From IMG/VR virus record IMGVR_UViG_3300045988_147970: a DNA stretch of 38,666 bases; one strand, written 5' to 3'. A program made the translations under genes and the position numbers. This document shows, piece by piece, positions 7,939 to 38,666 of the stretch. How positions within the stretch are numbered: the first letter of the stretch is position 1; each line of letters opens with the position of its first letter. Source of the DNA: a virus. Its lineage: Duplodnaviria; Heunggongvirae; Uroviricota; Caudoviricetes. The notes under the pieces were generated by a model. That model worked only from the letters and a program-made list of their open reading frames with translations, had not been told where the DNA came from and made no database searches.

Positions 7939-8499
7939 TTATTCTTCCTGCTTAATAAATCGGGATTCCTGGAGCGCCTGAAGCGCAAAATTAATCTCGT
8001 CTTCAATAATGCGTTCGATCTCCCTGGCTGTTTTGCCTTCACAACGGGGAGCTGCTCTTGGAGCAATACTAAATAAGCGGCTACGCAATTCATTAGCTGC
8101 CAGAAATGCATCATCCCTGACCGCATCTTTAGCGATGAGAGAGCCTTCCTTTTCTTCAAATTCAAGGCGTTTCAGCTTTGCCTGATAAATTTTTTCTGCG
8201 GTCTTAGCCTTGTTGAATTGCACCGCAACACCGGAAGTACCACCAGCTAATCCGGCATCATCAGCGGGTAACTCTGGTTGTTCCGAAGATATCCCATGCC
8301 CTCTTTTTCCATTTTCAGCAGATACCTCACGACCAACCTGTCGGCTCGCTTCATAAGCCGCACTGGCTTTATCAAAATCCAGCTTGCCGCTTTTCAGCAC
8401 TGGAATGCGACCGGAACGACAGAGCTTCGTAACCATTGCCGGAGAAATACCTTTCCGGCGAGCAAACTCTGACTTACTGACGATGGCCATTACTTGCAA
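7939..8499 (-). CDS. terminase small subunit (Nu1-like, N-terminal HTH)
   Basis: 186 aa directly upstream of the large terminase; N-terminal helix-turn-helix-like segment (SKSEFARRKGISPAMVTKL). Confidence 0.6.
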   Translation of the reverse strand: MQVMAIVSKSEFARRKGISPAMVTKLCRSGRIPVLKSGKLDFDKASAAYEASRQVGREVSAENGKRGHGISSEQPELPADDAGLAGGTSGVAVQFNKAKTAEKIYQAKLKRLEFEEKEGSLIAKDAVRDDAFLAANELRSRLFSIAPRAAPRCEGKTAREIERIIEDEINFALQALQESRFIKQEE

Positions 8500-9080
8500 C
8501 CATTAGCAAGATACTGAACAAATCCCTCATGCGTTTCATGCGCGTCGTGGTACTGACGATAAACATCCAGCAACAATGCAATTTCCATATCCGTCGCGGG
8601 AATACGTTCTTTATCAATAGCCAGGTACTTAATTTGAACAACAGGGGAAGAATTATCGTCTTCTTCCTGCGGCTGTTCATCGCTTAACATTTCGTCAAGC
8701 TCTGCATCATTAAACCCAAGCAGATCAATATCAAAATCATCATCCATTAACTCTTTGACTTCTTCGGCCAGAAGCTGCATATCCCAGCCAGCATTTAAGG
8801 CCAGCTTGTTATCTGCAATCCTGTAAGCCTTCTTCTGTTTTTCAGAAAGGTTACTCAACCGAATCGCCGGAACTTTATCCATTTCCAGAATTTCGGCTGC
8901 TGCAAGCCGACCATGCCCCGCAATCAGTTCATTCTTTTCATCGATCAGCACAGGATTAGTGAAACCGAACTCACGGATACTGTTCACCAACTGTTCAACC
9001 TGCTCATCTGAATGAGTCCGTGAATTTTTGGCGTATCTGAGCAGCTTACCGACTGGTAAATATTCGATTTTTAGAGCCAT
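8490..9080 (-). CDS. ParB-like nuclease domain (ParB/Srx N-terminal domain) protein
   Basis: 196 aa with ParB N-domain box (LIAGHGRLAAA); stop overlaps the small terminase start; paralog of 11747..12370. Confidence 0.7.
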   Translation of the reverse strand: MALKIEYLPVGKLLRYAKNSRTHSDEQVEQLVNSIREFGFTNPVLIDEKNELIAGHGRLAAAEILEMDKVPAIRLSNLSEKQKKAYRIADNKLALNAGWDMQLLAEEVKELMDDDFDIDLLGFNDAELDEMLSDEQPQEEDDNSSPVVQIKYLAIDKERIPATDMEIALLLDVYRQYHDAHETHEGFVQYLANGCK

Positions 9081-9637
9081 TTTTTAACCGCCATAACACA
9101 ACAGGTTAAAGAAAACTGTTTAACTTATTGATACTAAAAGAGAAAAATGACGATCTTTTTACTCATAAAAAATCACACAAACCAGCATAATCATCTGATT
9201 TTATTAAGTTTTTATAAGTAAAAAGGATCTTGAGATGGTGTTTTGGTTAAAAGATTGGATGTATTTGCATGATTTATAACGATTTTTATCAGAACAACAT
9301 CACATTGGTTAAAGATCTGCGCGTATCTTGATGATCTAAAAGAAAATTTTCTACTTTCTTTTTACCAGCACAAATACAGCAAAAAATCACGTTTTCCCGA
9401 TATTTTTCAATGAGATGAGTAAATTTCTTTTACCGCAACTTTTAACCTAACTTTTTTCACGTTTAGCTAGCCGAACATCGGGGTTCGAATGACCCGCATC
9501 CAACGCTTTTGTCCAGAAGGACCCAATTCTGCCGGACGATGAAACGATGCTCGTGCACCCCCACAGACAGCCAGCGAGCGACGCTACAGAACACAGTGAA
9601 TACACTCTGCATAACAACACCATCAACCACACGATGA

Positions 9638-10357
9638 TTAACGAGAGAAGGTCTTGGAAAGAATGTCATCAATAGCCTTTGTGACTTCATCAGCAAACGC
9701 ATCCTCACCAGCACGCAGCGCCACGCCATGCCAATCAAGACGCTGCGAATAGTTAGGTTGCTGGATAAACGTAAGGATCAACGTAGGACGCCGCCCAACG
9801 CGCTGCCAGACGCCTGGTTGAAGCGGGTTACTTGTACCAGGTCGAACAACAAAAAACTCCGTAGGCTTGCCCTGACGGCGATTTTGATGCGCATCTCGCT
9901 GAACTCTTAGGCCAGATAAGACCTGCTGTAATTGCCCCCGCGAAATATTCCCGTATTTGTCCAGCTTTGCGCCGGGACCAGGAGCAATCTGCCAGCCGTT
10001 AGGCAAATATCCACCAGCCCTTAGCGCCCCTTCTGAGCGTTTGTACTGTCGTTGGCCACCTTCGATTTGCGGAGTCAACGTTACAGGGGCTGGCGTTCCT
10101 CCCCATTCACGAGCATACACAATGGCTGTAGGATCACTCTTCTTTGCGGCCAAAACGTAAGTAGAGTTCTGAATCCACGGCGTGGGCCTGTCAAATACCC
10201 GATTAATTTCATTCTTAATCGCAGCCTGAGAAGCCTTTGCCGTTCTGGTTGCCGCAAGCGCCATTGCGAACGGCAATTCGCGTTCTTCAAGGCGCTGGAG
10301 TTGTCGTTGAATATCCTGAGAAGAAAAATCCATCTTTATCTCAATTCTGTCAGCCAC
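9638..10357 (-). CDS. hypothetical protein within the ParB/methyltransferase cassette
   Basis: 239-aa ORF co-oriented between the ParB-MTase fusion and the terminase-proximal ParB gene; no motif recognised. Confidence 0.35.
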   Translation of the reverse strand: MADRIEIKMDFSSQDIQRQLQRLEERELPFAMALAATRTAKASQAAIKNEINRVFDRPTPWIQNSTYVLAAKKSDPTAIVYAREWGGTPAPVTLTPQIEGGQRQYKRSEGALRAGGYLPNGWQIAPGPGAKLDKYGNISRGQLQQVLSGLRVQRDAHQNRRQGKPTEFFVVRPGTSNPLQPGVWQRVGRRPTLILTFIQQPNYSQRLDWHGVALRAGEDAFADEVTKAIDDILSKTFSR

Positions 10358-10373
10358 CAGCGCCTCCTACACA

Positions 10374-11753
10374 CTACTTAATCAACGGCCGGAAAGCCGC
10401 CAGCACATCATCAGATCGTCCGATTGTTGAACCACCAGGCAACGGCAACTCAAACTCAAAACGAACAGCTTTCTCCAGACTCGCCCAACTAAGGGAATCA
10501 TCGTTAATGACGTGCAAATACCAGCTCTTACAGTTGAATATTGACCGCTTAATCCTGAAACCATGTACACGACACAACTGCTTCACTTCCTCATCAGAGT
10601 GAAACTTCTGGTAAAACCAGTGCCCCTTCCGGTACAACGCGGTAAAACCGTCATGATCAATAAAATAAAGCCGGCTTTTGGAACTCGCCGCTTGTGTTTG
10701 CTTCAGGACTGTTTCCAGTTCTCCACGGCTACGGCCAGAAAAGAATATTGACCCACCAGCTTTACACAGGCCTTTCAGAACCGTCAGAACGGACCATTCA
10801 GCCTCGACACTATCGACCGAGTTCAAAACGCTATCGCAAATCACGTAGTCGTAACGCCCTCGCGTTTTTAAGTCGTCCACCAGCGTATCAATCATCCGGT
10901 TTGTTGCGGCCCTATCCAGAGTGTTTCCAGCGCCCTTACGGCGGAAAAGCTCGAGATCATGCAGGTTATATCCCTTTGCCCTGAGCATTCGCGCGTAGTC
11001 TCCCTGCCCCGAACCAAAATCAATTCCTCTTGGCGTCTTGGCAATGATCGGGAGGATCAACGACTCATACAGATTTGATTTCAGGCTGCCACCATTACGC
11101 AACCGCATAAGCTGCGCATACGTCTGGATGTATGTTGTTTTCTCCAGATGAGAATACTCAAATACACCATAAGTTTTATTCAGATAACTTTGGTATTTTT
11201 CCTTCTCAACATCAGGGATCACAAACACCGTTAGCGGTGTGCGCGTCATTTTCGCTGCTAATGCATACTGAGCACAGTGAATAACCTCACCAGACTGAGT
11301 AGCAACACAACCACCCCACGGACCATACTTGATAACCAGTTCCGCTATGTTCTTTCGAACATATGCCATTTTCGCGCGCATATTGCCTGAGATCTGGCTT
11401 GCCGATACCTGAACAAAACCATGCTTATCTTCCAGACCGGACACCCTGCAACGCTCATCTCCGCTATCAAAATCCGTTCCGTTATGCAGTTGGTTAAACC
11501 GTACTTCGTCGTATACCGTCGTTTCACAGGGCAACACATACACCGCAGCACGCGTTATTCCCAACTTACGTAGCGCCTTCGTCCTTTGGTGTCCCGCCAC
11601 CAGCAAATCGCCGCGCACTATCAATGGCTTCACAAGCCCCAGCTCCCTGACGCTTTCCGCCAGCCTCGCAAGATCATCCTCACCGATAAAACGCGGGTTA
11701 TATTCCGCGCCGCGTAGGTGCGTTATGTCGTAATTGAGGTGAAGCATCAGCAC
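10374..11753 (-). CDS. ParB-like N-terminal domain fused to a class I SAM-dependent methyltransferase domain
   Basis: N-terminus has a ParB box (LLVAGHQRTKALRKLG); C-terminal half has SAM-MTase motif I (IDFGSGQGDYARML), an acidic motif II (YDYVICDSV) and GGSIFFSG; 459 aa. Confidence 0.65.
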   Translation of the reverse strand: MLMLHLNYDITHLRGAEYNPRFIGEDDLARLAESVRELGLVKPLIVRGDLLVAGHQRTKALRKLGITRAAVYVLPCETTVYDEVRFNQLHNGTDFDSGDERCRVSGLEDKHGFVQVSASQISGNMRAKMAYVRKNIAELVIKYGPWGGCVATQSGEVIHCAQYALAAKMTRTPLTVFVIPDVEKEKYQSYLNKTYGVFEYSHLEKTTYIQTYAQLMRLRNGGSLKSNLYESLILPIIAKTPRGIDFGSGQGDYARMLRAKGYNLHDLELFRRKGAGNTLDRAATNRMIDTLVDDLKTRGRYDYVICDSVLNSVDSVEAEWSVLTVLKGLCKAGGSIFFSGRSRGELETVLKQTQAASSKSRLYFIDHDGFTALYRKGHWFYQKFHSDEEVKQLCRVHGFRIKRSIFNCKSWYLHVINDDSLSWASLEKAVRFEFELPLPGGSTIGRSDDVLAAFRPLIK

Positions 11754-12370
11754 ACCTCCCCAGCCAGCAATGCGGATACAAATCCGATATAGCTGCCATT
11801 ATCATCAACATAACGAGACACCGCGCAGTCAAAACGATCCGCTTCCTCATCCGTTGCCGGGATTTTATGACCTCCAAATGACAGGTACTGAACTTTTACG
11901 CCTGATTTGGCCTCATCCTTCTCAAATGGGATATCCATACCCTCTGTGTCATCGTAGACCGCCGCACTCAATAAGTTATCCAGTTCGCGCTGAGTAAAAC
12001 CAATTGAGTCCAGAGCAAAATCATCGGCCGCAAGATCTGCAAGCTCCGCGCTTAACAACTCTTCATCCCAACCAGCATTCAGCGGAATACGGTTGTCGGC
12101 CAGACGATATGCCTTCTTCTGATTCTCCGTTAGCCCAGCCAGAACAATGCAGGGAACATCATCCATCCCCAACTGAGTGGCCGCAGCAATTCGACCATGA
12201 CCAGCAATTACAACGTTGTTCTCGTCTATCAGGATCGGATTAGTCCATCCGTACTCCTGTATGCTGGCAACAATCTGATCTACCTGCTCCACGGAGTGTG
12301 TGCGAGCGTTCTTTTCATAACCAATCAACACAGAAAGTGGTAAAGAAACCACATTAAGATGTTTTGTCAT
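11747..12370 (-). CDS. ParB-like nuclease domain protein (paralog of 8490..9080)
   Basis: 207 aa; ParB box (VIAGHGRIAAA); similar along its length to the 196-aa ParB-like protein, including the C-terminal KIPATDEE region. Confidence 0.7.
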   Translation of the reverse strand: MTKHLNVVSLPLSVLIGYEKNARTHSVEQVDQIVASIQEYGWTNPILIDENNVVIAGHGRIAAATQLGMDDVPCIVLAGLTENQKKAYRLADNRIPLNAGWDEELLSAELADLAADDFALDSIGFTQRELDNLLSAAVYDDTEGMDIPFEKDEAKSGVKVQYLSFGGHKIPATDEEADRFDCAVSRYVDDNGSYIGFVSALLAGEVC

Positions 12371-14251: not shown

Positions 14252-14355
14252 TCTCCGGTTTAACCAGGGCGGGTATCGCTCGGTTTCGGGTATAATCATA
14301 GGAAATTTTTTCCCACCTGCAAAGCACTTTTTATATAAATATATAATTATATAAT
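14252..14355. repeat. ~104-bp duplicated promoter-leader module, copy A (copy B at 21832..21935)
   Basis: ~93% identical to 21832..21935; each copy sits directly upstream of a minus-strand gene start and carries the AGGAAA-N3-TTTCC operator-like motif and AT-rich TATATAA repeats. Confidence 0.6.
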
Positions 14356-15252: not shown

Positions 15253-15328
15253 TGGTGGCCCCTACCGGATTTGAACCGATGACCGTGCGATTATGAGTCG
15301 CCTGCTCTAACCACTGAGCTAAGGGGCC
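15253..15328 (-). tRNA. tRNA with anticodon CAU, ileX-like (tRNA-Ile2 or Met); 3-prime CCA encoded
   Basis: Reverse complement GGCCCCTTAGCTCAGTGGTTAGAGCAGGCGACTCATAATCGCACGGTCATCGGTTCAAATCCGGTAGGGGCCACCA folds as a cloverleaf; the first ~42 nt match my recollection of E. coli ileX. Confidence 0.85.
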
Positions 15329-20757: not shown

Positions 20758-21825
20758 TCAGGCTTTCAATAGCGATTCTTTCAGATATCGGGCATCAGCC
20801 AGGGCGTTTGGAGTAATCTTGCGAACCCATGCATTACGGGTTGGACTCCACTTAAAGGCGCGTGATTTAAGCAGCGAACGAATGTTTGCCTCTGGTTTGC
20901 CTGGGAAATAAAACAGGATGCGGTTATCCTCTGGATCTATCTCCATAGAAAAGCCGTCGTATTCTTCGCGCTGTGCTCCTGTTACAGACTTGACCGATTC
21001 AAGCTCCTTAATACGGCTCTGTAGTCGTTTGATTTCGGCGTTATTGTTGCTCAGTGCGTATGAAGGGAATCCGATGTGCCCACAGAAATCTCCGGCCAGT
21101 AACTCTTTGGCTTCGCTTTCTGTAAACCTGAGATCGATTAATGCAGAAAGCTGCTGTAATTGGTCTTTTTTGTATTTGCGAATGGCCTTATTTGCGGCCT
21201 TCATTTTGACGTGTGACTTCATGCAGCCTTGCAGCTTACGAAGCAACTTAAATAGCGCATCAGGATCATCAGACGAAATTCCATTACGACCAACACCTGC
21301 GGCTTTGCTCTCGTAGTGTGATGCTTTACTTTCGCATTCAACAAACGCTTTTCTTAATAACGCATCAGCTTTAGACAAACGGCGGCGATGGCCTTTCGCG
21401 CTATAATGGTCAACTAAAATCGGCTGGCCTAACGGGATCACATCCAACAGGTCATGCGCTCGCTTATGCGCTACCGCACCTTCTTTTCTGGCTTTTTCTG
21501 CACGAGCAATATATCGGGCAAGACGCGCGTTCTGGCGTTCCTGATAGGTGTTTACGTAATCATCTCCGCGCTGCTGCTGTTCAAGCCATGCTTTGCGCAG
21601 ATCTTCTGTTACGTCCACCAGCTCCGCAGGGATACAACCAGTTTGGGCTTCATAAGAGTAACCATCCTCATAGATACGCCCATCATCTTCAACAAAGAAA
21701 AAGGTTTCGTGCTCATCGCTTTTGACCATACGACCATTAACATGGCGTAATAGGTAGCCAGTATCAGTGCTTAACAAGCTGTTAGGGTTGTTGATCCAGT
21801 CAGAAATAATTACTTGTTTATTCAT
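20758..21825 (-). CDS. DUF3560-like protein with N-terminal extension
   Basis: Start at MNKQVII (residue 51 of the track ORF) with GGAG RBS; motifs GQPILVDHYSAKGHRRR, SSDDPDALFKL, KAANKAI, DFCGHIGFPSYALSNNNAEIKR, FKWS match my recollection of DUF3560. Confidence 0.5.
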   Translation of the reverse strand: MNKQVIISDWINNPNSLLSTDTGYLLRHVNGRMVKSDEHETFFFVEDDGRIYEDGYSYEAQTGCIPAELVDVTEDLRKAWLEQQQRGDDYVNTYQERQNARLARYIARAEKARKEGAVAHKRAHDLLDVIPLGQPILVDHYSAKGHRRRLSKADALLRKAFVECESKASHYESKAAGVGRNGISSDDPDALFKLLRKLQGCMKSHVKMKAANKAIRKYKKDQLQQLSALIDLRFTESEAKELLAGDFCGHIGFPSYALSNNNAEIKRLQSRIKELESVKSVTGAQREEYDGFSMEIDPEDNRILFYFPGKPEANIRSLLKSRAFKWSPTRNAWVRKITPNALADARYLKESLLKA

Positions 21826-21831
21826 CAGATT

Positions 21832-21935
21832 TCTCCGGTTTAACCAGGGCGGGTATCGCTCGGTTTCGGGTATAACCTTAGGAAATTTTTTCCCACCCGT
21901 AAAGCACTTTTTATATAAATCTATAATTATATAAA
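21832..21935. repeat. ~104-bp duplicated promoter-leader module, copy B
   Basis: See copy A; upstream of the DUF3560-like gene start at 21825. Confidence 0.6.
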
Positions 21936-22409: not shown

Positions 22410-22709
22410 TTAGACATGGAACGCTACTCGCTTTCCTGTAGGAAGCTCAACATCCAGGCTTAATTTGCCTCCCATAGCTTCAACGTAACGCTTTAATGTC
22501 GCCAGCTTTAAATCATTTCCGCGCTGCTCCAGCTTTGTTACTGCTGGCTGGCTTATACCCATCGCCTCAGCAACCTGTTTTTGTGATAACTGGAGTTCTT
22601 CACGCATCATCTGCAAGCCGACCTCAAGAATCATCTCATCTGCCATTTCTTTAATTCGCGCCTGGCTTTCAGGTGAACGGCTGGCAATCACCTCATCTAA
22701 TGTTCTCAT
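22410..22709 (-). CDS. HTH XRE-family antitoxin (HigA-like)
   Basis: 99 aa; HTH QKQVAEAMGISQPAVTKLEQ; start overlaps the toxin stop by 1 nt (ATGA). Confidence 0.65.
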   Translation of the reverse strand: MRTLDEVIASRSPESQARIKEMADEMILEVGLQMMREELQLSQKQVAEAMGISQPAVTKLEQRGNDLKLATLKRYVEAMGGKLSLDVELPTGKRVAFHV

Positions 22710-23056
22710 TACTTGCTCTCCAGTGTGTTCAGATGTGCTGCAAACTCATCCTCAGCTATACGCACCAGTTTTTTATAAAACCGCTTATCGTTACTTTTGT
22801 CTCCTGCACAAAGAACGATGGCCCGACGAATCGGATCGAACGCATAAAAGGCTCTTATCGGACGGCCAGAAAACTGAACGCGAAGCTCTTTCATATTTTT
22901 GTACCGAGAACCTTTTACGGTATCGGCATATGGCCTGGGTAACTCAGGTCCGTAAACCTGTAGATTTTTCAAATCAGCCAAAACCTTTTCCTGAAGAGCC
23001 TCTTCTTGCTCATTTAGCCAGTCGTCAAATCGCTGGCTAAAAAGTACCGTCCACAT
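22709..23056 (-). CDS. RelE/HigB-superfamily toxin, phage Gp49-like
   Basis: Start at MWTV with AGGA RBS; ADTVKGSRYKNMKELRV...AFYAFDPIRRAIVLCAGDK...KRFYKKLVRIAEDEF matches the Gp49-like toxin pattern. Confidence 0.65.
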   Translation of the reverse strand: MWTVLFSQRFDDWLNEQEEALQEKVLADLKNLQVYGPELPRPYADTVKGSRYKNMKELRVQFSGRPIRAFYAFDPIRRAIVLCAGDKSNDKRFYKKLVRIAEDEFAAHLNTLESK

Positions 23057-23300
23057 GCTCAATCCTATAACCTGTAGTTTATACCACTGACTATATAACC
23101 CGTAGGTTATAATTTCAAGAAAAACGGGGCTATTTAACATAATGGACGTTATCGGCACCACCGGATCACCGTTCATTGTCGGATCTAAAAAATCCGCTCA
23201 AAAGATCATGTTTTCCTGGGCGTTTTCCACCGTTTTTTATGTTGCTTATTTGTTAATGAAATCTCGTTTTCAGTTTCGCCTCATTTTCGACGCGAAAGCC

Positions 23301-23591
23301 CTATTTTTGTGACTTTACTCCTGGCATATGGACTTCCCAGCGACGAATCCCCATAGCTGCGCAAAAATCAGCCACATAATTCAATCCCGCCCATTCGCGG
23401 ATACCACCACGGGCTTTTTCAATGAAAACGGCAATCCCTTTTTTATTGAGAGCAAAAAGCCGCCAGCTTTTTGTCACTTCGTCCTGGGTAGCCACAACAC
23501 AAGTGAAAGCTCCCATGCGATACAGGTCCAAGAACTCTTTGCGTGTTTTGCGTACAAGTTCCATAACAAACCTCATATTTGCATGTTTCAA
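23301..23591 (-). CDS. hypothetical protein
   Basis: 96-aa ORF whose start overlaps the stop of the upstream HTH gene. Confidence 0.3.
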   Translation of the reverse strand: MKHANMRFVMELVRKTRKEFLDLYRMGAFTCVVATQDEVTKSWRLFALNKKGIAVFIEKARGGIREWAGLNYVADFCAAMGIRRWEVHMPGVKSQK

Positions 23592-23887
23592 ACATCTGTT
23601 TTGTTATCAATGAAGATTAACCCTAACCCAGCGAAGTAACACAGCAGCGCCCAGGCTGCATACGGAATGCTGGATCTGGATGTGGACTCCTTTAACATCT
23701 GCCAGTTGCGAACATTGCGACTATCTTTTAAGCCTAGTTTTTTGGCTAACTGCGAGCCGCTCATTCCGGTCAGGCCAATGACTGCCCGAACTTCTCCACA
23801 TGTAGGAGATTCCCATTCATCCGCTTTTTTTAAACAAGCCGGATTCAACATTTTTAAAACAGTATCTTTATCCATAACCATCTCCAT
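23588..23887 (-). CDS. XRE-like HTH protein with C-terminal hydrophobic segment
   Basis: HTH-like GMSGSQLAKKLGLKDSRNVRNWQ; C-terminal IPYAAWALLCYFAGLGLIFI; palindrome AGGAAA-N3-TTTCCT just upstream of the start. Confidence 0.4.
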   Translation of the reverse strand: MEMVMDKDTVLKMLNPACLKKADEWESPTCGEVRAVIGLTGMSGSQLAKKLGLKDSRNVRNWQMLKESTSRSSIPYAAWALLCYFAGLGLIFIDNKTDV

Positions 23888-23906
23888 TTATTATATCTAC
23901 GATGGT

Positions 23907-23921
23907 AGGAAATCTTTTCCT
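23907..23921. promoter_or_regulatory. operator-like perfect inverted repeat AGGAAA-TCT-TTTCCT
   Basis: Perfect 6-bp inverted repeat with 3-bp spacer ~20 bp upstream of the HTH gene start; near-identical copies at 14300..14314 and 21880..21894. Confidence 0.5.
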
Positions 23922-24368
23922 ATGTGGCAATAGAAATTTACTACATTGCGTATAAGACAAGTTTTCTATGTCTAATAGGAAATGATGTTTCTTACATTTT
24001 ATCGCGTTCTGATGGCTACTGTGTGCGTATTTATCGACGTTTATTGATAAGGCTCGCCCCTTCCTCCTGCAAAGCCCGGCCGTAGGCCTTATTTCGGCCT
24101 TATATAAATTGATTTTGTATAGTTCGAAACGTGCCGTTTCGAAAAGGATGATCAGGCTGCTCCATGCCTCCGGCAAGTGCCGGAGGAGGTATATTTGAGC
24201 GTAGCGACTCGAACCGGCGCGAGCTTTAGCTCGCTGCAAGGGCGAACATATTCACAGGCAAAGCCTGTGTAAGTTAAATAAAGAAAGTCTTAATAAAAGA
24301 AAGTGATTTTGCATTTATTTGTTTAGTGCATCTATTATAAAAAACCATTTGCATATACATATCAGAAC

Positions 24369-24377
24369 TGTGGATAA
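24369..24377. promoter_or_regulatory. DnaA box (TGTGGATAA) within candidate oriR
   Basis: Perfect 9-mer consensus ~145 bp downstream of the repA stop in an AT-rich stretch. Confidence 0.5.
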
Positions 24378-24518
24378 CTTTATTAGCCGATGCCTGTAAA
24401 GGCGATATTTTTGCTGTGTTCAGGTTTAGAGAAAATTAATTTAGATTGTTTTTTGAACAGATATTTTATTGCGACGTAGATAATCCTCCGGTAAAACCGG
24501 ATTCATCATTCAGGTGGG

Positions 24519-25367
24519 TTAATGTTGGAGTGATTTCCAGGTCTTTCTTAACCTGTTATAACGCTGCTCAACGAGGGATCGTAAATATGCAAGGTCAGCA
24601 CCAGGATACATGCCATCAGCAAATTCCTGACTAACCTCTCTGGTGATTTGATGACGAAGTTCGGCCTCTCCCTTTTCCCGAACAAGACGCGCAGCTCTCT
24701 CCGCTGCTTTCTGTTTTGCCTTTATCTCTCTGGCCGTCTTCCTCTGACGCCATACATTCTCCATCTGCTCCTGAATAACAATACGCTTATAATCAGCCTC
24801 CGTTATCGCTTTTTTAAGCCGTTCGCTATTCTTCGCATTGAAGTAATTAAGTTTCTGGCTAACCGCACGTCTCCATGCTTGTTCAGTAATACCAACGGTT
24901 TCCAGCAGTTGATCACGAATCTCTATTTTCGCTGGCCAATACTGTTTATTCACCCGATCCCAGCGACGTTCATAATCAATAAAACCTAACGCTTTCAGTT
25001 GCGACAACGCCCTTGTACAGCGCGTTATAGACTTGTTCCCAGCTTCGGATACGGTAGACAGGCCGCAAAAATCAGCCAACGCCTCAGCACTAGCCAGAAC
25101 CCGCTTAGAAATGATGTTTACATGGTGCAAAATCGCAGCGATCACAGCATTAATCGCCCGACGACGATGCTCGTTTATCCGGCGCTTCCGCTCTGACGGT
25201 TGATTAACGTAGAACGCAACCTCACACGTAAGATCACGCCCATTAATGCGCTGTAAAGCATCAGATAACACCAGCGGCAGCTTGTGCGTATGGTGCTTTG
25301 GAGGCTGGAACTCCGGCGACAAATTACAAACGTAAGCTGAACGTAGAGACGGCATTGGTCTATCCAT
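24519..25367 (-). CDS. repA: replication initiator RepA, IncFII RepA1 family
   Basis: AINAVIAAILHHVNIISKRVLASAEALADFCGLSTVSEAGNKSITRCTRALSQLKALGFIDYE aligns with my recollection of R100 RepA1. Start set at MDRP; the track ORF extends 44 codons further upstream in frame. Confidence 0.8.
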   Translation of the reverse strand: MDRPMPSLRSAYVCNLSPEFQPPKHHTHKLPLVLSDALQRINGRDLTCEVAFYVNQPSERKRRINEHRRRAINAVIAAILHHVNIISKRVLASAEALADFCGLSTVSEAGNKSITRCTRALSQLKALGFIDYERRWDRVNKQYWPAKIEIRDQLLETVGITEQAWRRAVSQKLNYFNAKNSERLKKAITEADYKRIVIQEQMENVWRQRKTAREIKAKQKAAERAARLVREKGEAELRHQITREVSQEFADGMYPGADLAYLRSLVEQRYNRLRKTWKSLQH

Positions 25368-25382
25368 ATGTTCGCTCTTGCG

Positions 25383-25495
25383 TCCACGGAAAACCAACGT
25401 ATAATGGGAGTTGTCGAGGCGCCCATGGATTGTTGTTGTTGGTTTTCCGTGGATGTCGCAAGAAGCCCGCAGATTTATCTGCGGGCTTTTTGTTT
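25383..25495 (+). ncRNA. candidate CopA-like antisense RNA opposite the repA leader
   Basis: 16-bp perfect inverted repeat (25383..25398 with 25438..25453) followed by hairpin AGCCCGCAGA-TTTA-TCTGCGGGCT and a T-run on the plus strand; boundaries inferred. Confidence 0.4.
25464..25495 (+). terminator. rho-independent terminator on the plus strand, antisense to the repA leader
   Basis: Perfect 10-bp stem with 4-nt loop followed by TTTTTGTTT. Confidence 0.55.
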
Positions 25496-25862
25496 CCATA
25501 TCTGGTCACTTTCCAACCAGACACCCACAATCATAACCACGTTACGTGGTTTTAAGAGAACTCTACCACAACACTTTCGGTCATGCACGAAGTCTCTCAC
25601 TGATCGAACGATAATCCACCAGTAAAAGGATCTAAATTGGATCTCGTTTTGCGAGCATCATACTACTGGCCTAACTCCAGTCAATGATTCCCAGCCAGAA
25701 ACCTGCGGTAAACTCATCGTTCAGCAATATGCTGTCCGGCTTCAAAGATAAGGTGACATCATCCCTTAACAGCGCGGCCAGCTCCGTTAAAGGGTTGTTT
25801 TGACTTAATGCAAAACCGCTAATAAACATATTGGCGGTTTTGTTCCTTAAATCATCTTGCCT

Positions 25863-26438
25863 TTACACTAATTCTGGCCATTCGATATCAGGGGCATTTT
25901 CCGGCTGAACGCGATTCAGTAGCACACGGTATTTTTTCCAGTGTGTCAGGCTTAACTTTTCTTCCTCGGTAGCCATATCTAAATCGACAGCATCCTGCAG
26001 AGTGGCAATAATTTCACCTGCATATGCAATCAGCTCTTTCTTCTGAGAGTCAGCCGCTCTGACAAGCGCATCACGCTCTGCATTCTCATCATTCACCCAC
26101 GCATTGCCGTTCCATTTCTGATAATCCCCCTCCGGGGAAATGGCTGTCACGTCTGGAGGTAATACGCCAAGTTCAGAAATATAAATGGCTGCTCCCGTTT
26201 TCGTTTCATAGACGGTCTTTCCGCGATGGTCTTCCATCAGTTCCCATTTCATTTCATCTGCATTGAAAACGGCTGCATAACCCGCCGGAATATCAGGCGG
26301 TGCAATATCTGTACTGTTTGCAGGCAGGCCAGTATACGGTGGGATATATGCGTCACTTTCGCCAATAAATTCATTGGTTCCATCAAGTAAATTGAAAACG
26401 CGGATAGTTTGTGCTTCTGCACTCATTCTGAAAGCCAT
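25863..26438 (-). CDS. tail fiber assembly protein
   Basis: 191 aa immediately downstream of the tail fiber gene with overlapping stop/start; pattern typical of Tfa chaperones. Confidence 0.7.
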
Positions 26439-29242
26439 TATGCAAGCCTCACAATATAGTTAAATGCGATGTTTTTGACGGTGTTTTCGGTATTACCCGT
26501 AGCATTTACCGTGATGGTGTGTCCGTGCGCACCTAATGCTACAGTGTGTGCATGGGCACCAATACCTACAGTGTGGTTATGCTGACCAATATCCACCGTA
26601 TGGGCGTGCGCTCCGGCGGTGCTGGACACCTGATTGTTTCCTGAAGCCTGTACACGCTGTTTTCCACCGACAGAGTCGCCGCCATAAACACCACCGACAG
26701 TGTGCGTATGATTGCCCGTATTGTTCGTTGATTTTGTGCCATGATTAAACGTACTGACCGTCTTCGTGCCGTAATCAAACGAACTGGTTGTTTTCGTTCC
26801 CAAATCCGTATTTGACGCACTGGCACTGTGAGTATGCGATTTAATCCCGTCCTGTTCCTGTGACAATACGGCACGCCCACTGGCGGGTTTGCCCTTGATT
26901 GTCCAGCCGCGCATATCTGGAATAACACCAGAAGGATAGGCTATAGCCAGTTTCGGATATGCTGCCTTATCAAACGTCTGCCCCTGCATAATTGCATAGC
27001 CCGCAGGTGGTGTATCTGATGGCCACGGCAACGGAACACCTGGCGGAAATGCTTCAATATTTGCCGAGCCGTCAAATTTTACGCCGTTAATTGTCCTTGC
27101 CGTTTTCAGCTTTGTAGCTGTAGCCGCATTGCCGGACAGTTCACCAGAAAGACCACCGCTGAATGTCTGTTTCGCCGCCCATGTCTGAGCTTCGTCGATA
27201 ATTGGCACACGTCTTGTCGTGATCGTGCGGCTTCCCGGATTTCCTGAAATACGCACCATAAAAAAGCGGTAATTCGCTTTACTTACAGTGCTGCGCCATA
27301 CATGCATTGAGCGCCCCGTACCGGAATCATCACTCGGACCAACTGCGATGTTTATCAGGTTGCCATCAATGACGCCCCAGTCCATACCGTCGGGAATGTT
27401 GGTCATGTTATCAAGCCGAACGGTTATCAGACTGCCCGGCACAAAGTCGTGGGTCTGCCAGTCCAGGCTGGTGAGCTTTGCCACTGCACCGCCGATACCC
27501 AGATTCAGGGGAAGTGAATACGAGGTGTAGACTTCCCGCCATTCGCTCCATGAGCTGCCGGTAAAAACGCGCTCAAACGTGCGACCTTTAAGGGTTGTAC
27601 CTGTTCCGGCAGTTGTATAACGCTGCCATACGTTAACACCATCAAAGCGCCTCAACACTTCCAGAATACCGAGGACTGTCACGCCGTTTCCGTCCAGTAT
27701 TGGACCATTGGTCGCTTTACCTGTAACGCTGTAAATACCTGGTGAAGTCACATCATTCAAATCCCCGTCGTAATAACGACTCTCTGACTGATGACCGACT
27801 CTTAACCACGGTTCCCACTGCGGATTTGATGCATCCCAGCTTGCCGCAAGGCAGCGGACATACATATTTCCACGGCGAGTGGTATAACGTTGCGTTCTTC
27901 CATAATTCCCGCCTTCGAGGATCTCAAGCGTCCCCTGAGCAAAGCCGCCTTCCTCTGGATAATTGCGTTCATATGAAGCTATAGCCGAGCTACTGTTACG
28001 CCATAAACCAAGATGCTCGGCGGCTCCAAGCGTATTCAGGTCTATAGTCGTACTCAAAGGGCGGGTAGCAGATTGAGTGTGACGCCATACGCCCCACGGA
28101 CCATCAGTGCCATTCCACTTACTGGCGAGTTTACGCATGTATACATTGCCGTCTCCCGTGGTAAAGCGTTGAGTACCTGCAAAATTGCCGGCAGCAAAAA
28201 CCTCAAGCACACCGACAGCATTATCTTCCGGGAAATTTTTCTCCAGTGTTGCGTTAGTTGAGGTAGCTTTAGACCAGATCCCCAGATAAGCCTTAACGGG
28301 ACCAAATGTATTCAGGTCGGCATCAACCGGCATTTCGCCATTGTTTTTCATAAACGTCAGGCTAGTAACGCCAACATTGTCCAGAAAAGCTGATTTATCC
28401 TGGATATCTGCACCGTTCTGATTTTTCGCCAGACGTGAATTTGCGTTGTCATTTGCTGCCTTGACCGCTTTTGGCGTTGCCGCCTGCGTTTCAGACGTAC
28501 TGTTAGTGGCACTACTGAGCTGAACAATCCCTTTTCGCGCCGTGGTAGCGTCCTGTGCGGTGTATTTAGCGTTAGCCAGGTCATATGCAGCCTTAACAGC
28601 CTTAGGCGTCGCTGCGAGCTTTTCAGACGTGCTATTGGTGGCATTACTGAGTTGAACAATGCCTTTTGATGTTAAAGTTGCATCAGGATGATTACGTGAT
28701 TGCTCATGTTTTACAATAGCTTGCTTAAGCCGCTTTGCTGAAACAGCCAGGGAATCATCTGTACCTGCATCAATTTCTTGTTCATTAGCAAATCTTGCTA
28801 CTCCAACAACAGTTTCGGTTGCGGGAGGGTTAATAAACTCAACATCACCAAATGTAATGTTTTTAGTATCAAGATTTTTAATTGCTATATCACTTGATAT
28901 TAAAGCAATTGTAGAAGATGCTTTATTTATTATTACTTGTTCTTGCGAGTATACAGCAAACAATGTTCCTTTATTTGTATACAAACCTATTGTATGGACA
29001 ACATACTCATCTTTACTATCATCCTTCGCAGTTACATGAATGGTATCAGGAGAAACGACTTTGCCTCCTATTGTGGTAAGTCGCTTTATTTCATCTGTTA
29101 TTTTTGTTTGTGTGGTTGATGTGGCATAATATCTACTACCTAAACCAACAGAAACGATCTCAACTTTATTTGTTCCAGTCTTGTTGGCATTAACCAGCGC
29201 CTTACGCCCGGCGTCAGTCATCGTAAATAATAATTTACTCAC
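26438..29242 (-). CDS. tail fiber protein
   Basis: 934 aa; two tandem copies of a fiber repeat (KGIVQLSxATNSTSE..[10 protein letters not shown]); C-terminus rich in HxH motifs ([21 protein letters not shown]). Confidence 0.8.
28458..28721. repeat. tandem duplication of a ~132-bp unit inside the tail fiber gene
   Basis: Two adjacent ~132-bp units share long identical runs (TTTCAGACGT.CT.TTGGTGGCA.TACTGAG.TGAACAAT.CCTTTT) and encode the repeated peptide motif. Confidence 0.5.
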
Positions 29243-37349: not shown

Positions 37350-38666
37350 TTATTCAGAAAACAAGTTCAGCAGATAATCAGGATTATATTCCATGACGAA
37401 CTCTATATCTCTGGCAGGTGAGAATGGTGTCATTTTTACATGGAATTTAACAATCCCGTCCATCAATGACGTAATCGTGTTTTCAGACTGATCAAAGGTA
37501 ACAACACCACCTGCAATATCCTGATTACCAGTGAGGCCGTTAAGCCAAATATTCGCACTAGTAACAATCGATTCAATTAATCGACGGTTTGCAGGATTGT
37601 CTATTTTTGACCAATGCGAAAGAATTAACGTATTACCCACCCAGTTAAACATACGTCGGCAAACACGAAATGCGTCTTTGGGGTCTGTAGATGTTGGATA
37701 AATAGCATTACGGTTTCCCCATGATTTCCAACCATCAAAATTAAGGCTTGTTACAATCCCCTGTCCATTTAAGTAGTTTGCCTGGCTAATGTTAAGCCAT
37801 ACCTCACTGCCATCTTTACGTACAGCACCGTCCATCTGTAGTTTTATATTTGACGGAGAACGTGATGGAATATCATCATACTGACTATCCAGCAAGCATG
37901 TTGCTGCAGCTAAATGGGTTGAGTGATGGTAAATATTGTCACCAAGTTTCACCATCGGCCAGCACACTGTCTGGTTAGCTGCCATATGATTATTGTTCTG
38001 CTTCCATTCAGGAACAGCAGAATAATCACTGATAGTAGATTTATCAGTCGGCGCATCGGTGATAGCTTCTGCTTTGAACAATTCACTAATCAGCGCAGCT
38101 TTAGCCGCCATTAGCTGGCCAACTTCACTATCAGAACTAAATCCAGGCGCAATCACTTGTCCAGGAACCAACTTGAAGCGGGGATACACATCAGACAGTA
38201 ACTCAAGCCCTGTATTGGCTTTAGTGTTGGAATCCACACCACCGATAATGTCATTTTTAGTTACGGCACCGGGATCAAGATGCGTATAACTAACCTTAAG
38301 AGTAGCGTCTTTTTCGGTAATTTTTCCTCCGCTAATAGCGGTAATGACCGTATAGCCATTATCATCCAGCGCCAGCACATAATCGGTGTCAACCGTTAAT
38401 CCTGCCGAATCACCATCTGCTTTTTTCACAACAACAGATTTATATAAGACACCATCGTTAGAGAGCGTACCTTTCCCGCCAGAAAGTTTTACTACCTCAT
38501 CAGGTACGTCTTTCTTATGCTTTGCTGGATCAAGCACATTAATAAATACAACTGGCGCAACACCATATATTCCAAATGCGACTTTAATTACTTCGCTTAA
38601 AGTATATTTCTCGAAGTTTGTGCTATATCCTATTTTAGATACGGCCTCTGCGTATGTATAAGCAAT
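37350..38666 (-). CDS. tail sheath protein, 3-prime major portion (reading frame open to the window end)
   Basis: Track ORF 37350..38537 plus 43 in-frame codons to 38666; the first 18 of these are the 54-bp repeat also at 31..84, linking to the N-terminal fragment at 4..231; immediately upstream of the tube gene. Confidence 0.8.
   Translation of the reverse strand: MAYTYAEAVSKIGYSTNFEKYTLSEVIKVAFGIYGVAPVVFINVLDPAKHKKDVPDEVVKLSGGKGTLSNDGVLYKSVVVKKADGDSAGLTVDTDYVLALDDNGYTVITAISGGKITEKDATLKVSYTHLDPGAVTKNDIIGGVDSNTKANTGLELLSDVYPRFKLVPGQVIAPGFSSDSEVGQLMAAKAALISELFKAEAITDAPTDKSTISDYSAVPEWKQNNNHMAANQTVCWPMVKLGDNIYHHSTHLAAATCLLDSQYDDIPSRSPSNIKLQMDGAVRKDGSEVWLNISQANYLNGQGIVTSLNFDGWKSWGNRNAIYPTSTDPKDAFRVCRRMFNWVGNTLILSHWSKIDNPANRRLIESIVTSANIWLNGLTGNQDIAGGVVTFDQSENTITSLMDGIVKFHVKMTPFSPARDIEFVMEYNPDYLLNLFSE
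38613..38666. repeat. 54-bp exact direct repeat, copy 2 (ends exactly at the window end)
   Basis: See copy 1 at 31..84. Confidence 0.85.

Follow-up and report, generated by a model that had tools for sequence, protein, structure and literature searches.

How is a contractile-tailed phage that encodes no integrase kept in its host, and what is a plasmid-type replication gene doing among its structural genes? These questions are raised by a stretch of 38,666 nucleotides, IMG/VR virus record IMGVR_UViG_3300045988_147970 (Caudoviricetes), referred to here as the window. In an initial annotation, made from the letters alone, the locus at positions 23888-25862 was proposed to be an IncFII-type plasmid replicon inside a complete virion genome, and the whole was called an unusual candidate phage-plasmid. 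As argued below, positions 24123-25684 very probably constitute the basic replicon of a widespread, ~48-kb family of enterobacterial phage-plasmids with no integrase, in which the head is lambda-like and the contractile tail P2-like. The replicon comprises the initiator gene repA, a predicted antisense RNA (the countertranscript), and an origin located downstream of repA.

Strong evidence comes from the relatives of the window. The window, replicon region included, is 98-100% identical to more than 50 circular, non-mobilizable E. coli plasmids of 47-49 kb in PLSDB. In the replicon region it also shares 98-99% identity with three genomes of 49 kb that were entered in the databases as Yersinia phages vB_YpM_39/41/44 (OR545053-55), with Y. 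pestis EV76 as the deposited host. In a RefSeq set of 5426 complete E. coli genomes, the replicon is present in 71 (~1.3%), at a total of 82 places, and all 82 are on plasmids. Not one of these places is chromosomal, and the arrangement that had been named as fatal to the proposal, in which the element sits in a chromosome between att sites and next to an integrase, was not encountered. Even the reference strain ATCC 25922 carries a plasmid of the family (NZ_CP009073.1). No integrase is annotated in the full-length relatives, only a Hin invertase in some of them. Because near-identical DNA has been deposited both as circular plasmids and as phage genomes, and all 82 E. coli places are on plasmids, the view of the element as a phage-plasmid kept by its RepA replicon, rather than by integration, is strongly supported and the original candidacy stands. 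The extrachromosomal state is one shown for the 98-100% identical relatives. A plasmid-type replication module, one of the marks of a phage-plasmid, is likewise in place, as seen in the family matches of RepA and in the origin block described below.

Three plasmids (NZ_CP009073.1, NZ_CP032259.1, and NZ_CP069971.1) and the three Yersinia phages represent the same element as the window, with 98-100% identity in the replicon, ~98-99% identity in the structural genes, and an equal gene order. The window departs from them in lacking one contiguous segment of 9.4 kb, which encodes a CI-like helix-turn-helix (HTH) repressor, ParA, a Rha/ORF6N antirepressor, the Ref nuclease, a DUF1064 protein, and small HTH proteins. 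It also differs from the vB_YpM phages and the ATCC 25922 plasmid in the tail-fibre/invertase region adjoining repA, where it has no hin.

With a family present in ~1.3% of complete E. coli genomes, the label “unusual” has to be given up: the element is common, already sequenced, found in about 1% of sequenced E. coli, and not an oddity. The family occurs many times in public databases with its RepA and phage genes annotated. In PLSDB the family plasmids have no replicon type under MOB-suite, and the replicon genes in the Yersinia phage records are, every one, labelled hypothetical. In the literature searched, no paper was found that describes the family by name, vB_YpM_39/41/44, or the ATCC 25922 plasmid as a phage-plasmid. 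Likewise, six family accessions had no match in the supplements of two phage-plasmid surveys. PMC11652158 lists eight curated groups of phage-plasmids, none of which is this family; it may fall in an uncurated community of PMC7969092. The pseudolysogenic Yersinia phage HQ103 was considered as a relative and rejected, being an unrelated 32-kb peduovirus. Finally, a 2026 report (PMC13552960) describes a 48.2-kb “mosaic prophage” in a Salmonella Enteritidis clade, the larger module of which is most similar to Yersinia phage vB_YpM (OR545054), and this element may be a plasmid-borne phage-plasmid of the present family, not an integrated prophage.

At the centre of the replicon lies repA. The open reading frame (ORF) at 24519..25367 on the minus strand, first described as a 283-aa protein, encodes 282 aa followed by a stop codon that had been included in the count. 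A profile search of this ORF bore out the proposed family, with a match to Pfam PF02387 (IncFII_repA) at an E value of 8e-44 and 150.5 bits that aligns residues 9-275 to model positions 2-272 of 275. RepA also passes NCBIfam NF040977 (RepA_IncFII_LM), at 232 bits against a cut-off of 70. Relatives with 81-85% RepA identity have proteins of 277 aa that align to the second ATG of the window ORF, at 25355; counted from this conserved ATG, repA spans 24519..25355 (minus strand) and encodes 278 aa. In RefSeq (PGAP), the start is set at ATG 25499, giving a protein of 326 aa whose reading frame runs through the terminator of the predicted countertranscript. The resulting N-terminal extension has no counterpart in the 81-85% identity relatives, and the RefSeq start at 25499 is probably wrong.

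The wider kinship of RepA takes in both plasmids and phage-plasmids. Identical RepA occurs on ~500 contigs in a large protein collection, and a detectable homologue among 50,697 phage records was seen only in the three Yersinia phages; no RepA relative was found in species-representative genomes. The 81-85% identity relatives come from Salmonella and Klebsiella aerogenes and have repA and a conserved origin block followed by a toxin-antitoxin pair. Upstream of repA, these relatives have tail-fibre genes (L008 and L012), and an invertase gene lies between those and repA in L011-L013. At ~60% RepA identity there is a clade of elements with Mu-type baseplates that also encode ParA and Rha, together with an HTH repressor that weakly matches Peptidase_S24. 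At 63% identity there is a plasmid with a type IV secretion system, and at 36% a KPC plasmid that also has such a system. The initiator lineage is plasmid-derived and occurs in conjugative plasmids as well as in two or more kinds of myovirus-type phage-plasmids. The leader of the ~60% clade does not align with that of the window, which suggests that these elements control repA differently. A 162-aa ORF with weak winged-helix matches (9516-10004 in both L009 and L010) overlaps the repA start by 4 nt in the same clade.

Downstream of repA, six related replicons were aligned, including the type IV secretion plasmid with 63% identical RepA. About 20 nt past the repA stop is a hairpin of the form TCCGG-loop-CCGGA (24487..24501, minus strand); its CCGG/CCGG stem is present in five of the six replicons (CTGG in L014), and its loop varies. 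The hairpin is followed by ~100 nt of unconserved spacer, and together the two would correspond by position to the CIS spacer of plasmid R1. The initial annotation had placed a perfect DnaA box ~145 bp downstream in an AT-rich stretch. The box (TTATCCACA, 24369..24377, minus strand) is indeed there, 141 nt past the stop, as the sole exact match in the window. Its position is conserved in all six replicons, with one substitution in L011 (TTATTCACA), and it opens a nearly invariant origin block of ~300 bp whose flanks diverge.

Within this block, the DnaA box is adjoined by an AT-rich core (24271..24368, minus strand; GC 0.26-0.33) that contains three ATGCA(A/C) repeats (24354-24348, 24331-24326, and 24314-24307) and a repeated AAAGAAAGT motif; the core would be the place of RepA binding and DNA unwinding. 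Beyond it lie four conserved hairpins (24253-24270, ~24216-24237, 24167-24186, and 24123-24143; together 24123..24270, minus strand) predicted by alifold on the six sequences. The first two show compensatory changes, and one of the four was also returned by a terminator scan. This cluster may serve as a priming (G-site-like) signal or as a cluster of terminators. A 123-aa ORF with a TTG start (23868..24239) that overlaps the hairpins had no family match. The downstream region as a whole has the shape that would be expected of an origin where RepA acts in cis.

Upstream of the coding sequence, repA appears to be preceded by a structured leader, which was compared among five phage-plasmids, four of them close relatives. 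A predicted repA promoter (TTGACT, 16-nt spacer, TATGAT; 25657..25684, minus strand) matches the consensus at 10 of 12 positions. Both hexamers are conserved in the five phage-plasmids, while the spacer, the flanks, and the next ~50 nt diverge. Just downstream, at the start of the leader, is a GATCC-N6-GATCC pair with two Dam GATC sites (25628..25643, minus strand). The two GATCC copies, 11 nt apart, are invariant in the five leaders and the intervening 6-7 nt vary; the pair could be a regulator site or could subject repA transcription to Dam/SeqA control.

The repA mRNA leader (25356..25650, minus strand) is ~290 nt long and is predicted by RNAalifold on the five sequences to contain four conserved stem-loops, with 63 pairs of which 7 are kept through changes on both sides. 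One hairpin, AACCACG..CGTGGTT, lies at 25535-25551, and the G-U pairs of the first leader hairpin are valid on the sense strand only. The most conspicuous structure is a long stem with a 15-bp core, in which the 5' arm CCACGGAAAACCAAC (~25438-25452) pairs with the 3' arm GTTGGTTTTCCGTGG (~25384-25398). Flanking UUGCG/CGCAA segments extend it to ~23 pairs, of which 3-4 are compensatory across the five leaders, and it ends ~20 nt ahead of the repA start region.

An antisense hairpin and terminator arrangement like that of CopA had been noted at first inspection, and its elements are present on the plus strand at 25378-25495. Specifically, a predicted antisense promoter (25378..25405) was read from the sequence as TTGCGT (25378-25383), a 16-nt spacer, and TATAAT (25400-25405). 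Its -35 and -10 elements are invariant in the five aligned leaders, and it lies under the threshold of the promoter scan because the -35 element matches the consensus at only 3 of 6 positions. The predicted product is an antisense RNA of ~86 nt (25410..25495, plus strand; minimum free energy -41 kcal/mol), the complement of a part of the repA leader that lies 40-140 nt ahead of the start codon. Its 5' stem-loop (25423-25452) has the stem CCAUGGA/UCCGUGG and a U-rich loop with UUGG, and its 3' end is a G+C-rich terminator hairpin followed by a T-run (25458-25495). The same two-hairpin fold is predicted in all five sequences, with 27 pairs in the RNAalifold consensus, 2 of them kept through changes on both sides. 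Several of its G-U pairs become C-A mismatches if read on the sense strand, which points to the plus-strand RNA as the structured molecule. On these grounds the countertranscript is likely to exist.

How this RNA might act is indicated by its own sequence. The sequence of the long leader stem's 3' arm recurs in the loop and stem of its 5' hairpin, and so the antisense RNA should displace that arm. In the proposed scheme, repA would be transcribed from the sigma-70 promoter at 25684-25657 through the ~290-nt structured leader, and the ~86-nt countertranscript (25410-25495, plus strand) would pair with the leader, limit RepA synthesis, and thereby set the copy number. The duplication of the 3' arm suggests that the antisense RNA would do so by competing for the long-stem pairing, as in the IncB/IncI-alpha/IncL-M replicons, and not through a leader peptide as in R1. 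The exact mechanism, in which competition for leader pairing limits RepA translation, is offered tentatively. RepA would then act, probably in cis, at the origin that starts 141 nt past the repA stop, with its DnaA box, AT-rich core with three ATGCA repeats, and conserved hairpin cluster. Since no other replication initiator is recognisable in the element or among its early genes, the same RepA module may also serve lytic replication.

Several leader peptides were considered and set aside, since none of the candidates keeps both its frame and its start codon in the relatives. These include an in-frame ATG at 25499, a 19-aa ORF at 25534-25475, a TTG-started ORF of 32 codons ending in TAG at 25363-25361, and, inside the long stem's loop, a AUGGGCGCC ORF. 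In L013, CUG stands in place of the AUG of one candidate; other candidates shift frame between the window and L008.

A number of observations weigh against this picture and should be set beside it. The covariation behind the RNA structures is thin, at 2-7 pairs, as is to be expected with only five leaders and so many close relatives among them. A search of 23000-26500 on both strands returned no match at E<=1 to the Rfam models for CopA, PK-repBA, or PK-repZ, and the regulatory analogy is therefore one of anatomy. One exact DnaA box in 38.7 kb is not significant in itself, as 30 of 100 shuffled sequences have at least one. The evidence for virion production consists of GenBank phage records, for which no descriptive paper was found. 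Finally, a second, unrecognised lytic origin is possible, given several early genes of unknown function and a DUF3560 protein (20758-21825, minus strand) whose C-terminal half has a PHROG “primase” match (E 1.8e-36), the only hint of replication other than RepA. The same Rfam search gave sub-threshold matches to Thr_leader and CsrC on the terminator hairpin and to IS009 inside a tail-fibre assembly gene, and all three were taken as chance or as a generic terminator.

The region upstream of the repA promoter varies among relatives, being occupied by an invertase, a tail-fibre assembly gene, or a transferase. No CopB homologue was found there in the window, and the 52-aa ORF at 25671-25829 has neither CopB similarity nor a Pfam family. 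The variable segment that separates repA from the tail-fibre genes corresponds to window positions 25712-26076. A Hin-type invertase and an invertible tail-fibre cassette occupy it in the ATCC 25922 plasmid and the Yersinia phages, the invertase being for tail-fibre switching; in NZ_CP032259.1 it has a “transferase”, and in the window it holds only the 52-aa orphan ORF.

If the replicon belongs to a phage-plasmid family with repressor and partition genes, why are these genes absent here? The window is a metagenome scaffold and not the complete virion genome that it was initially taken to be. Its bases 31-84 are the same as its last 54 bases (38613-38666), and the 30 bases with which it begins (CTATTATAAAGAACCTGAGCAGACAGCGGA) are without a match elsewhere in the window or in its relatives and interrupt the sheath gene; the terminal overlap is consistent with a circular path taken from an assembly graph. 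In NZ_CP069971.1, the segment missing from the window lies between two copies of a 102-nt direct repeat, 9,436 bp apart. By alignment to the full-length relatives, a single copy remains at the deletion junction (21832..21933, plus strand). Each copy immediately precedes the start of a leftward gene, Shine-Dalgarno sequence included, and contains a GGAAA-TTT-TTTCC inverted repeat, so that the repeat looks like an early promoter with its 5' untranslated region. A further copy with 2 mismatches lies at ~14252-14353, ahead of the MT-A70 operon. Full-length relatives have three copies, upstream of the DUF3560, 126-aa/HTH, and MT-A70 operons, of which the window keeps two. The initial description of the gene content, with head, tail, lysis, and packaging sets plus a toxin-antitoxin pair and with no integrase, CI, or ParA, is accurate for the window. 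As CI and ParA are both encoded by full-length relatives, within the missing segment, their absence characterises this scaffold, not the family.

The gap itself can be explained in two ways. It could well be a real deletion, though the case stops short of making this probable. Recombination between the two 102-nt repeats would have yielded a derivative without repressor and partition genes, able to propagate only lytically or alongside a full-length copy, with the replicon kept. At the junction stands one clean copy of the repeat, and the junction-spanning ORF is found again in scaffold_575 of ENA metagenome assembly ERZ28579748, a contig of 38,711 bp that is a circular permutation of the 38,666-bp window. 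Moreover, other deletion derivatives occur in finished isolate genomes. For example, pGF31-D (L006, NZ_CP172156.1, 38,999 bp) has lost late, lysis, and early genes and kept CI and ParA, and pCREC-544_3 (L016, NZ_CP024829.1, 32,182 bp), reported as a circular plasmid, is without CI, ParA, and lysis genes, and its terminase and baseplate genes are split. A derivative that keeps 38.6 of 48 kb, as here, would still suit a cos-type packaging range. On the other hand, the junction is spanned by none of 73 PLSDB records, all six IMG/VR contigs that contain its left side have the wild-type junction, and it was unmatched in JGI metagenome contigs. In addition, the two permuted contigs may share one sample, and exact repeats of 102 nt are well known for making short-read graph assemblies skip a loop.

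It is a serious possibility too that the gap is an assembly artefact, the sample having held a full-length, ~48-kb element whose circle was closed through the collapsed repeat with the 9.4-kb loop left as a separate contig. The source is a metagenome scaffold, the 54-nt end overlap and the 30 unrelated starting bases are typical of graph-derived circular paths, and in all the collections searched no other sample shows the junction. Against this, assemblers usually end a contig at a repeat that they fail to resolve, instead of skipping a 9.4-kb loop, and the same join was made in two contigs.

The most far-reaching interpretation is that a natural repeat-recombination derivative lost its repressor, antirepressor, and partition genes in one step while keeping its replicon, or, independently of this, that the countertranscript and RepA form an undescribed incompatibility and control system; such a reading is conceivable, if on the doubtful side. 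Were the first part true, the deletion would give a phage-plasmid a built-in way to become obligately lytic or dependent on a helper, which may be compared with the repressor-loss infections of a marine phage-plasmid (PMC10090143). Were the second part true, the control system would be one that is absent from Rfam and from MOB-suite typing, and it may supply the only initiator for plasmid and lytic replication alike.

An inverted repeat resembling that of the 102-nt promoter repeat accompanies another predicted promoter. A predicted promoter (TTGCCA-17-TACCAT, 23902-23930, minus strand) for a 99-aa gene at 23588..23887 overlaps the motif AGGAAA-N3-TTTCCT (~23909-23925). The 99-aa protein has weak HTH and repressor-like matches and may be a regulator that binds these inverted-repeat sites. 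Adjoining the replicon is the toxin-antitoxin pair (22410..23176, minus strand), which consists of a Gp49/HigB-like toxin (Pfam PF05973, 2e-22) and an HTH antitoxin (HTH_3, 4e-10); relatives annotate the toxin as RelE/ParE-family.

Is the element, then, a functional phage-plasmid at all? It might instead be a plasmid of the ordinary kind into which a defective prophage was taken up, or an integrated prophage that retains the remnant of a plasmid gene. Some family members are clearly decayed, with a frameshifted tail fibre, a split terminase, or lost late genes, and no published induction or plaque data were found. This alternative is nonetheless very unlikely. Three genomes that are 98-99% identical in the replicon region were deposited as phages of Y. 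pestis EV76, and no chromosomal copy was found in the 5426 genomes. Furthermore, the packaging, head, tail, and lysis genes are intact in full-length members, at 98-99% identity across many hosts. These members encode terminase, portal, a ClpP-type protease, decoration and major capsid proteins, sheath, tube, tape measure, a P2-type baseplate, tail fibre, holins, and a GH108 endolysin.

Two other features of the phage portion may be recorded. A tRNA-Met (CAT) gene lies at 15253-15328 (minus strand), between the lysis and MT-A70 regions, and is also annotated in vB_YpM_44. Upstream of the terminase genes are three proteins with ParB/Srx N-terminal domains (8490-9080, 10374-11753, and 11747-12370; minus strand) and no paired ParA, which are more likely to be of a DNA-processing or nuclease type than part of a partition system.

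The value of these results is mostly one of annotation, as they concern a common but poorly labelled element with no MOB-suite type and a RepA start that is probably mis-annotated in RefSeq; the current understanding of phage-plasmids is left unchanged. The layout of promoters, countertranscript, and origin nevertheless provides a basis for work on copy-number control in a phage-plasmid that apparently has a single initiator. The repeat-flanked immunity/partition cassette, for its part, shows why metagenome scaffolds of the family can seem “complete” and yet be without CI and ParA, and calls for caution in arguments from gene absence. Interest would rise if the cassette loss proved real, or if a countertranscript-controlled RepA proved to be the sole initiator for both life styles.

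It remains to place the replicon among known systems, beginning with the IncFII plasmids R1 and R100 (copB-copA-tap-repA-CIS-oriR). The likeness consists of a RepA of the same Pfam family, a predicted leader-encoded antisense RNA of ~85-90 nt with two stem-loops, and an origin past repA that follows a spacer of ~140-175 nt and opens with the DnaA box TTATCCACA. A real IncFII replicon used as a control has the same box 175 nt past its repA stop, an annotated Tap and CopB-type regulator, and, in the same Rfam search, a CopA match of 101.5 bits with weak matches to PK-repBA and PK-repZ. Despite the shared Pfam match, the comparable gene order and repA-to-DnaA-box distance, and the similar size of the predicted antisense RNA, a true R1/R100-type IncFII replicon with CopA, CopB, and Tap that is incompatible with IncFII plasmids is the least credible of the alternatives and highly improbable, for RepA fails both the IncFII equivalog TIGR03474 (79 bits, cut-off 446.9) and PRK13750 (82 bits versus 478), canonical IncFII RepA is 40% identical over 105 aa by BLASTP and 31-40% identical over residues 82-207 only by tblastn, the countertranscript falls outside the CopA model, no CopB homologue lies upstream, no short Tap-like ORF is preserved in both frame and start codon among the five leaders, and MOB-suite gives no replicon type. 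The “IncFII-type” label of the initial annotation is thus best kept at the superfamily level, where the replicon appears related to IncFII without being IncFII proper, and its incompatibility with IncFII plasmids is unlikely.

The IncB, IncI-alpha, and IncL/M replicons may offer the closer regulatory parallel. In these plasmids, an antisense RNA (RNAI or Inc RNA) blocks a long-range activating pairing in the rep leader. Similarly, the stretch of the window leader that is targeted by the antisense RNA is predicted to pair with a distal site upstream of the repA start, and the antisense RNA copies that distal site; RepA itself passes NF040977, a model that spans IncFII and IncL/M. The window differs in that PK-repBA (RF01089) and PK-repZ (RF01087) are unmatched, no RepB/RepY-like leader peptide is conserved, and the pairing is predicted as a long nested stem rather than a pseudoknot.

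Finally, the family may be compared with the classical phage-plasmids P1, N15, and SSU5, reviewed in PMC7969092 and PMC11652158. Like these, it is temperate, tailed, and extrachromosomal, with a plasmid-type initiator, ParA-type partition, toxin-antitoxin addiction, and no integrase. At ~48 kb it is smaller than the 55-110 kb of P1, N15, and SSU5, and it differs from them in pairing a head of lambda-like type with a tail of P2-like type. The initiator, an IncFII_repA protein, would be controlled by an antisense RNA, whereas P1 relies on an iteron-type and N15 on a primase-helicase initiator.

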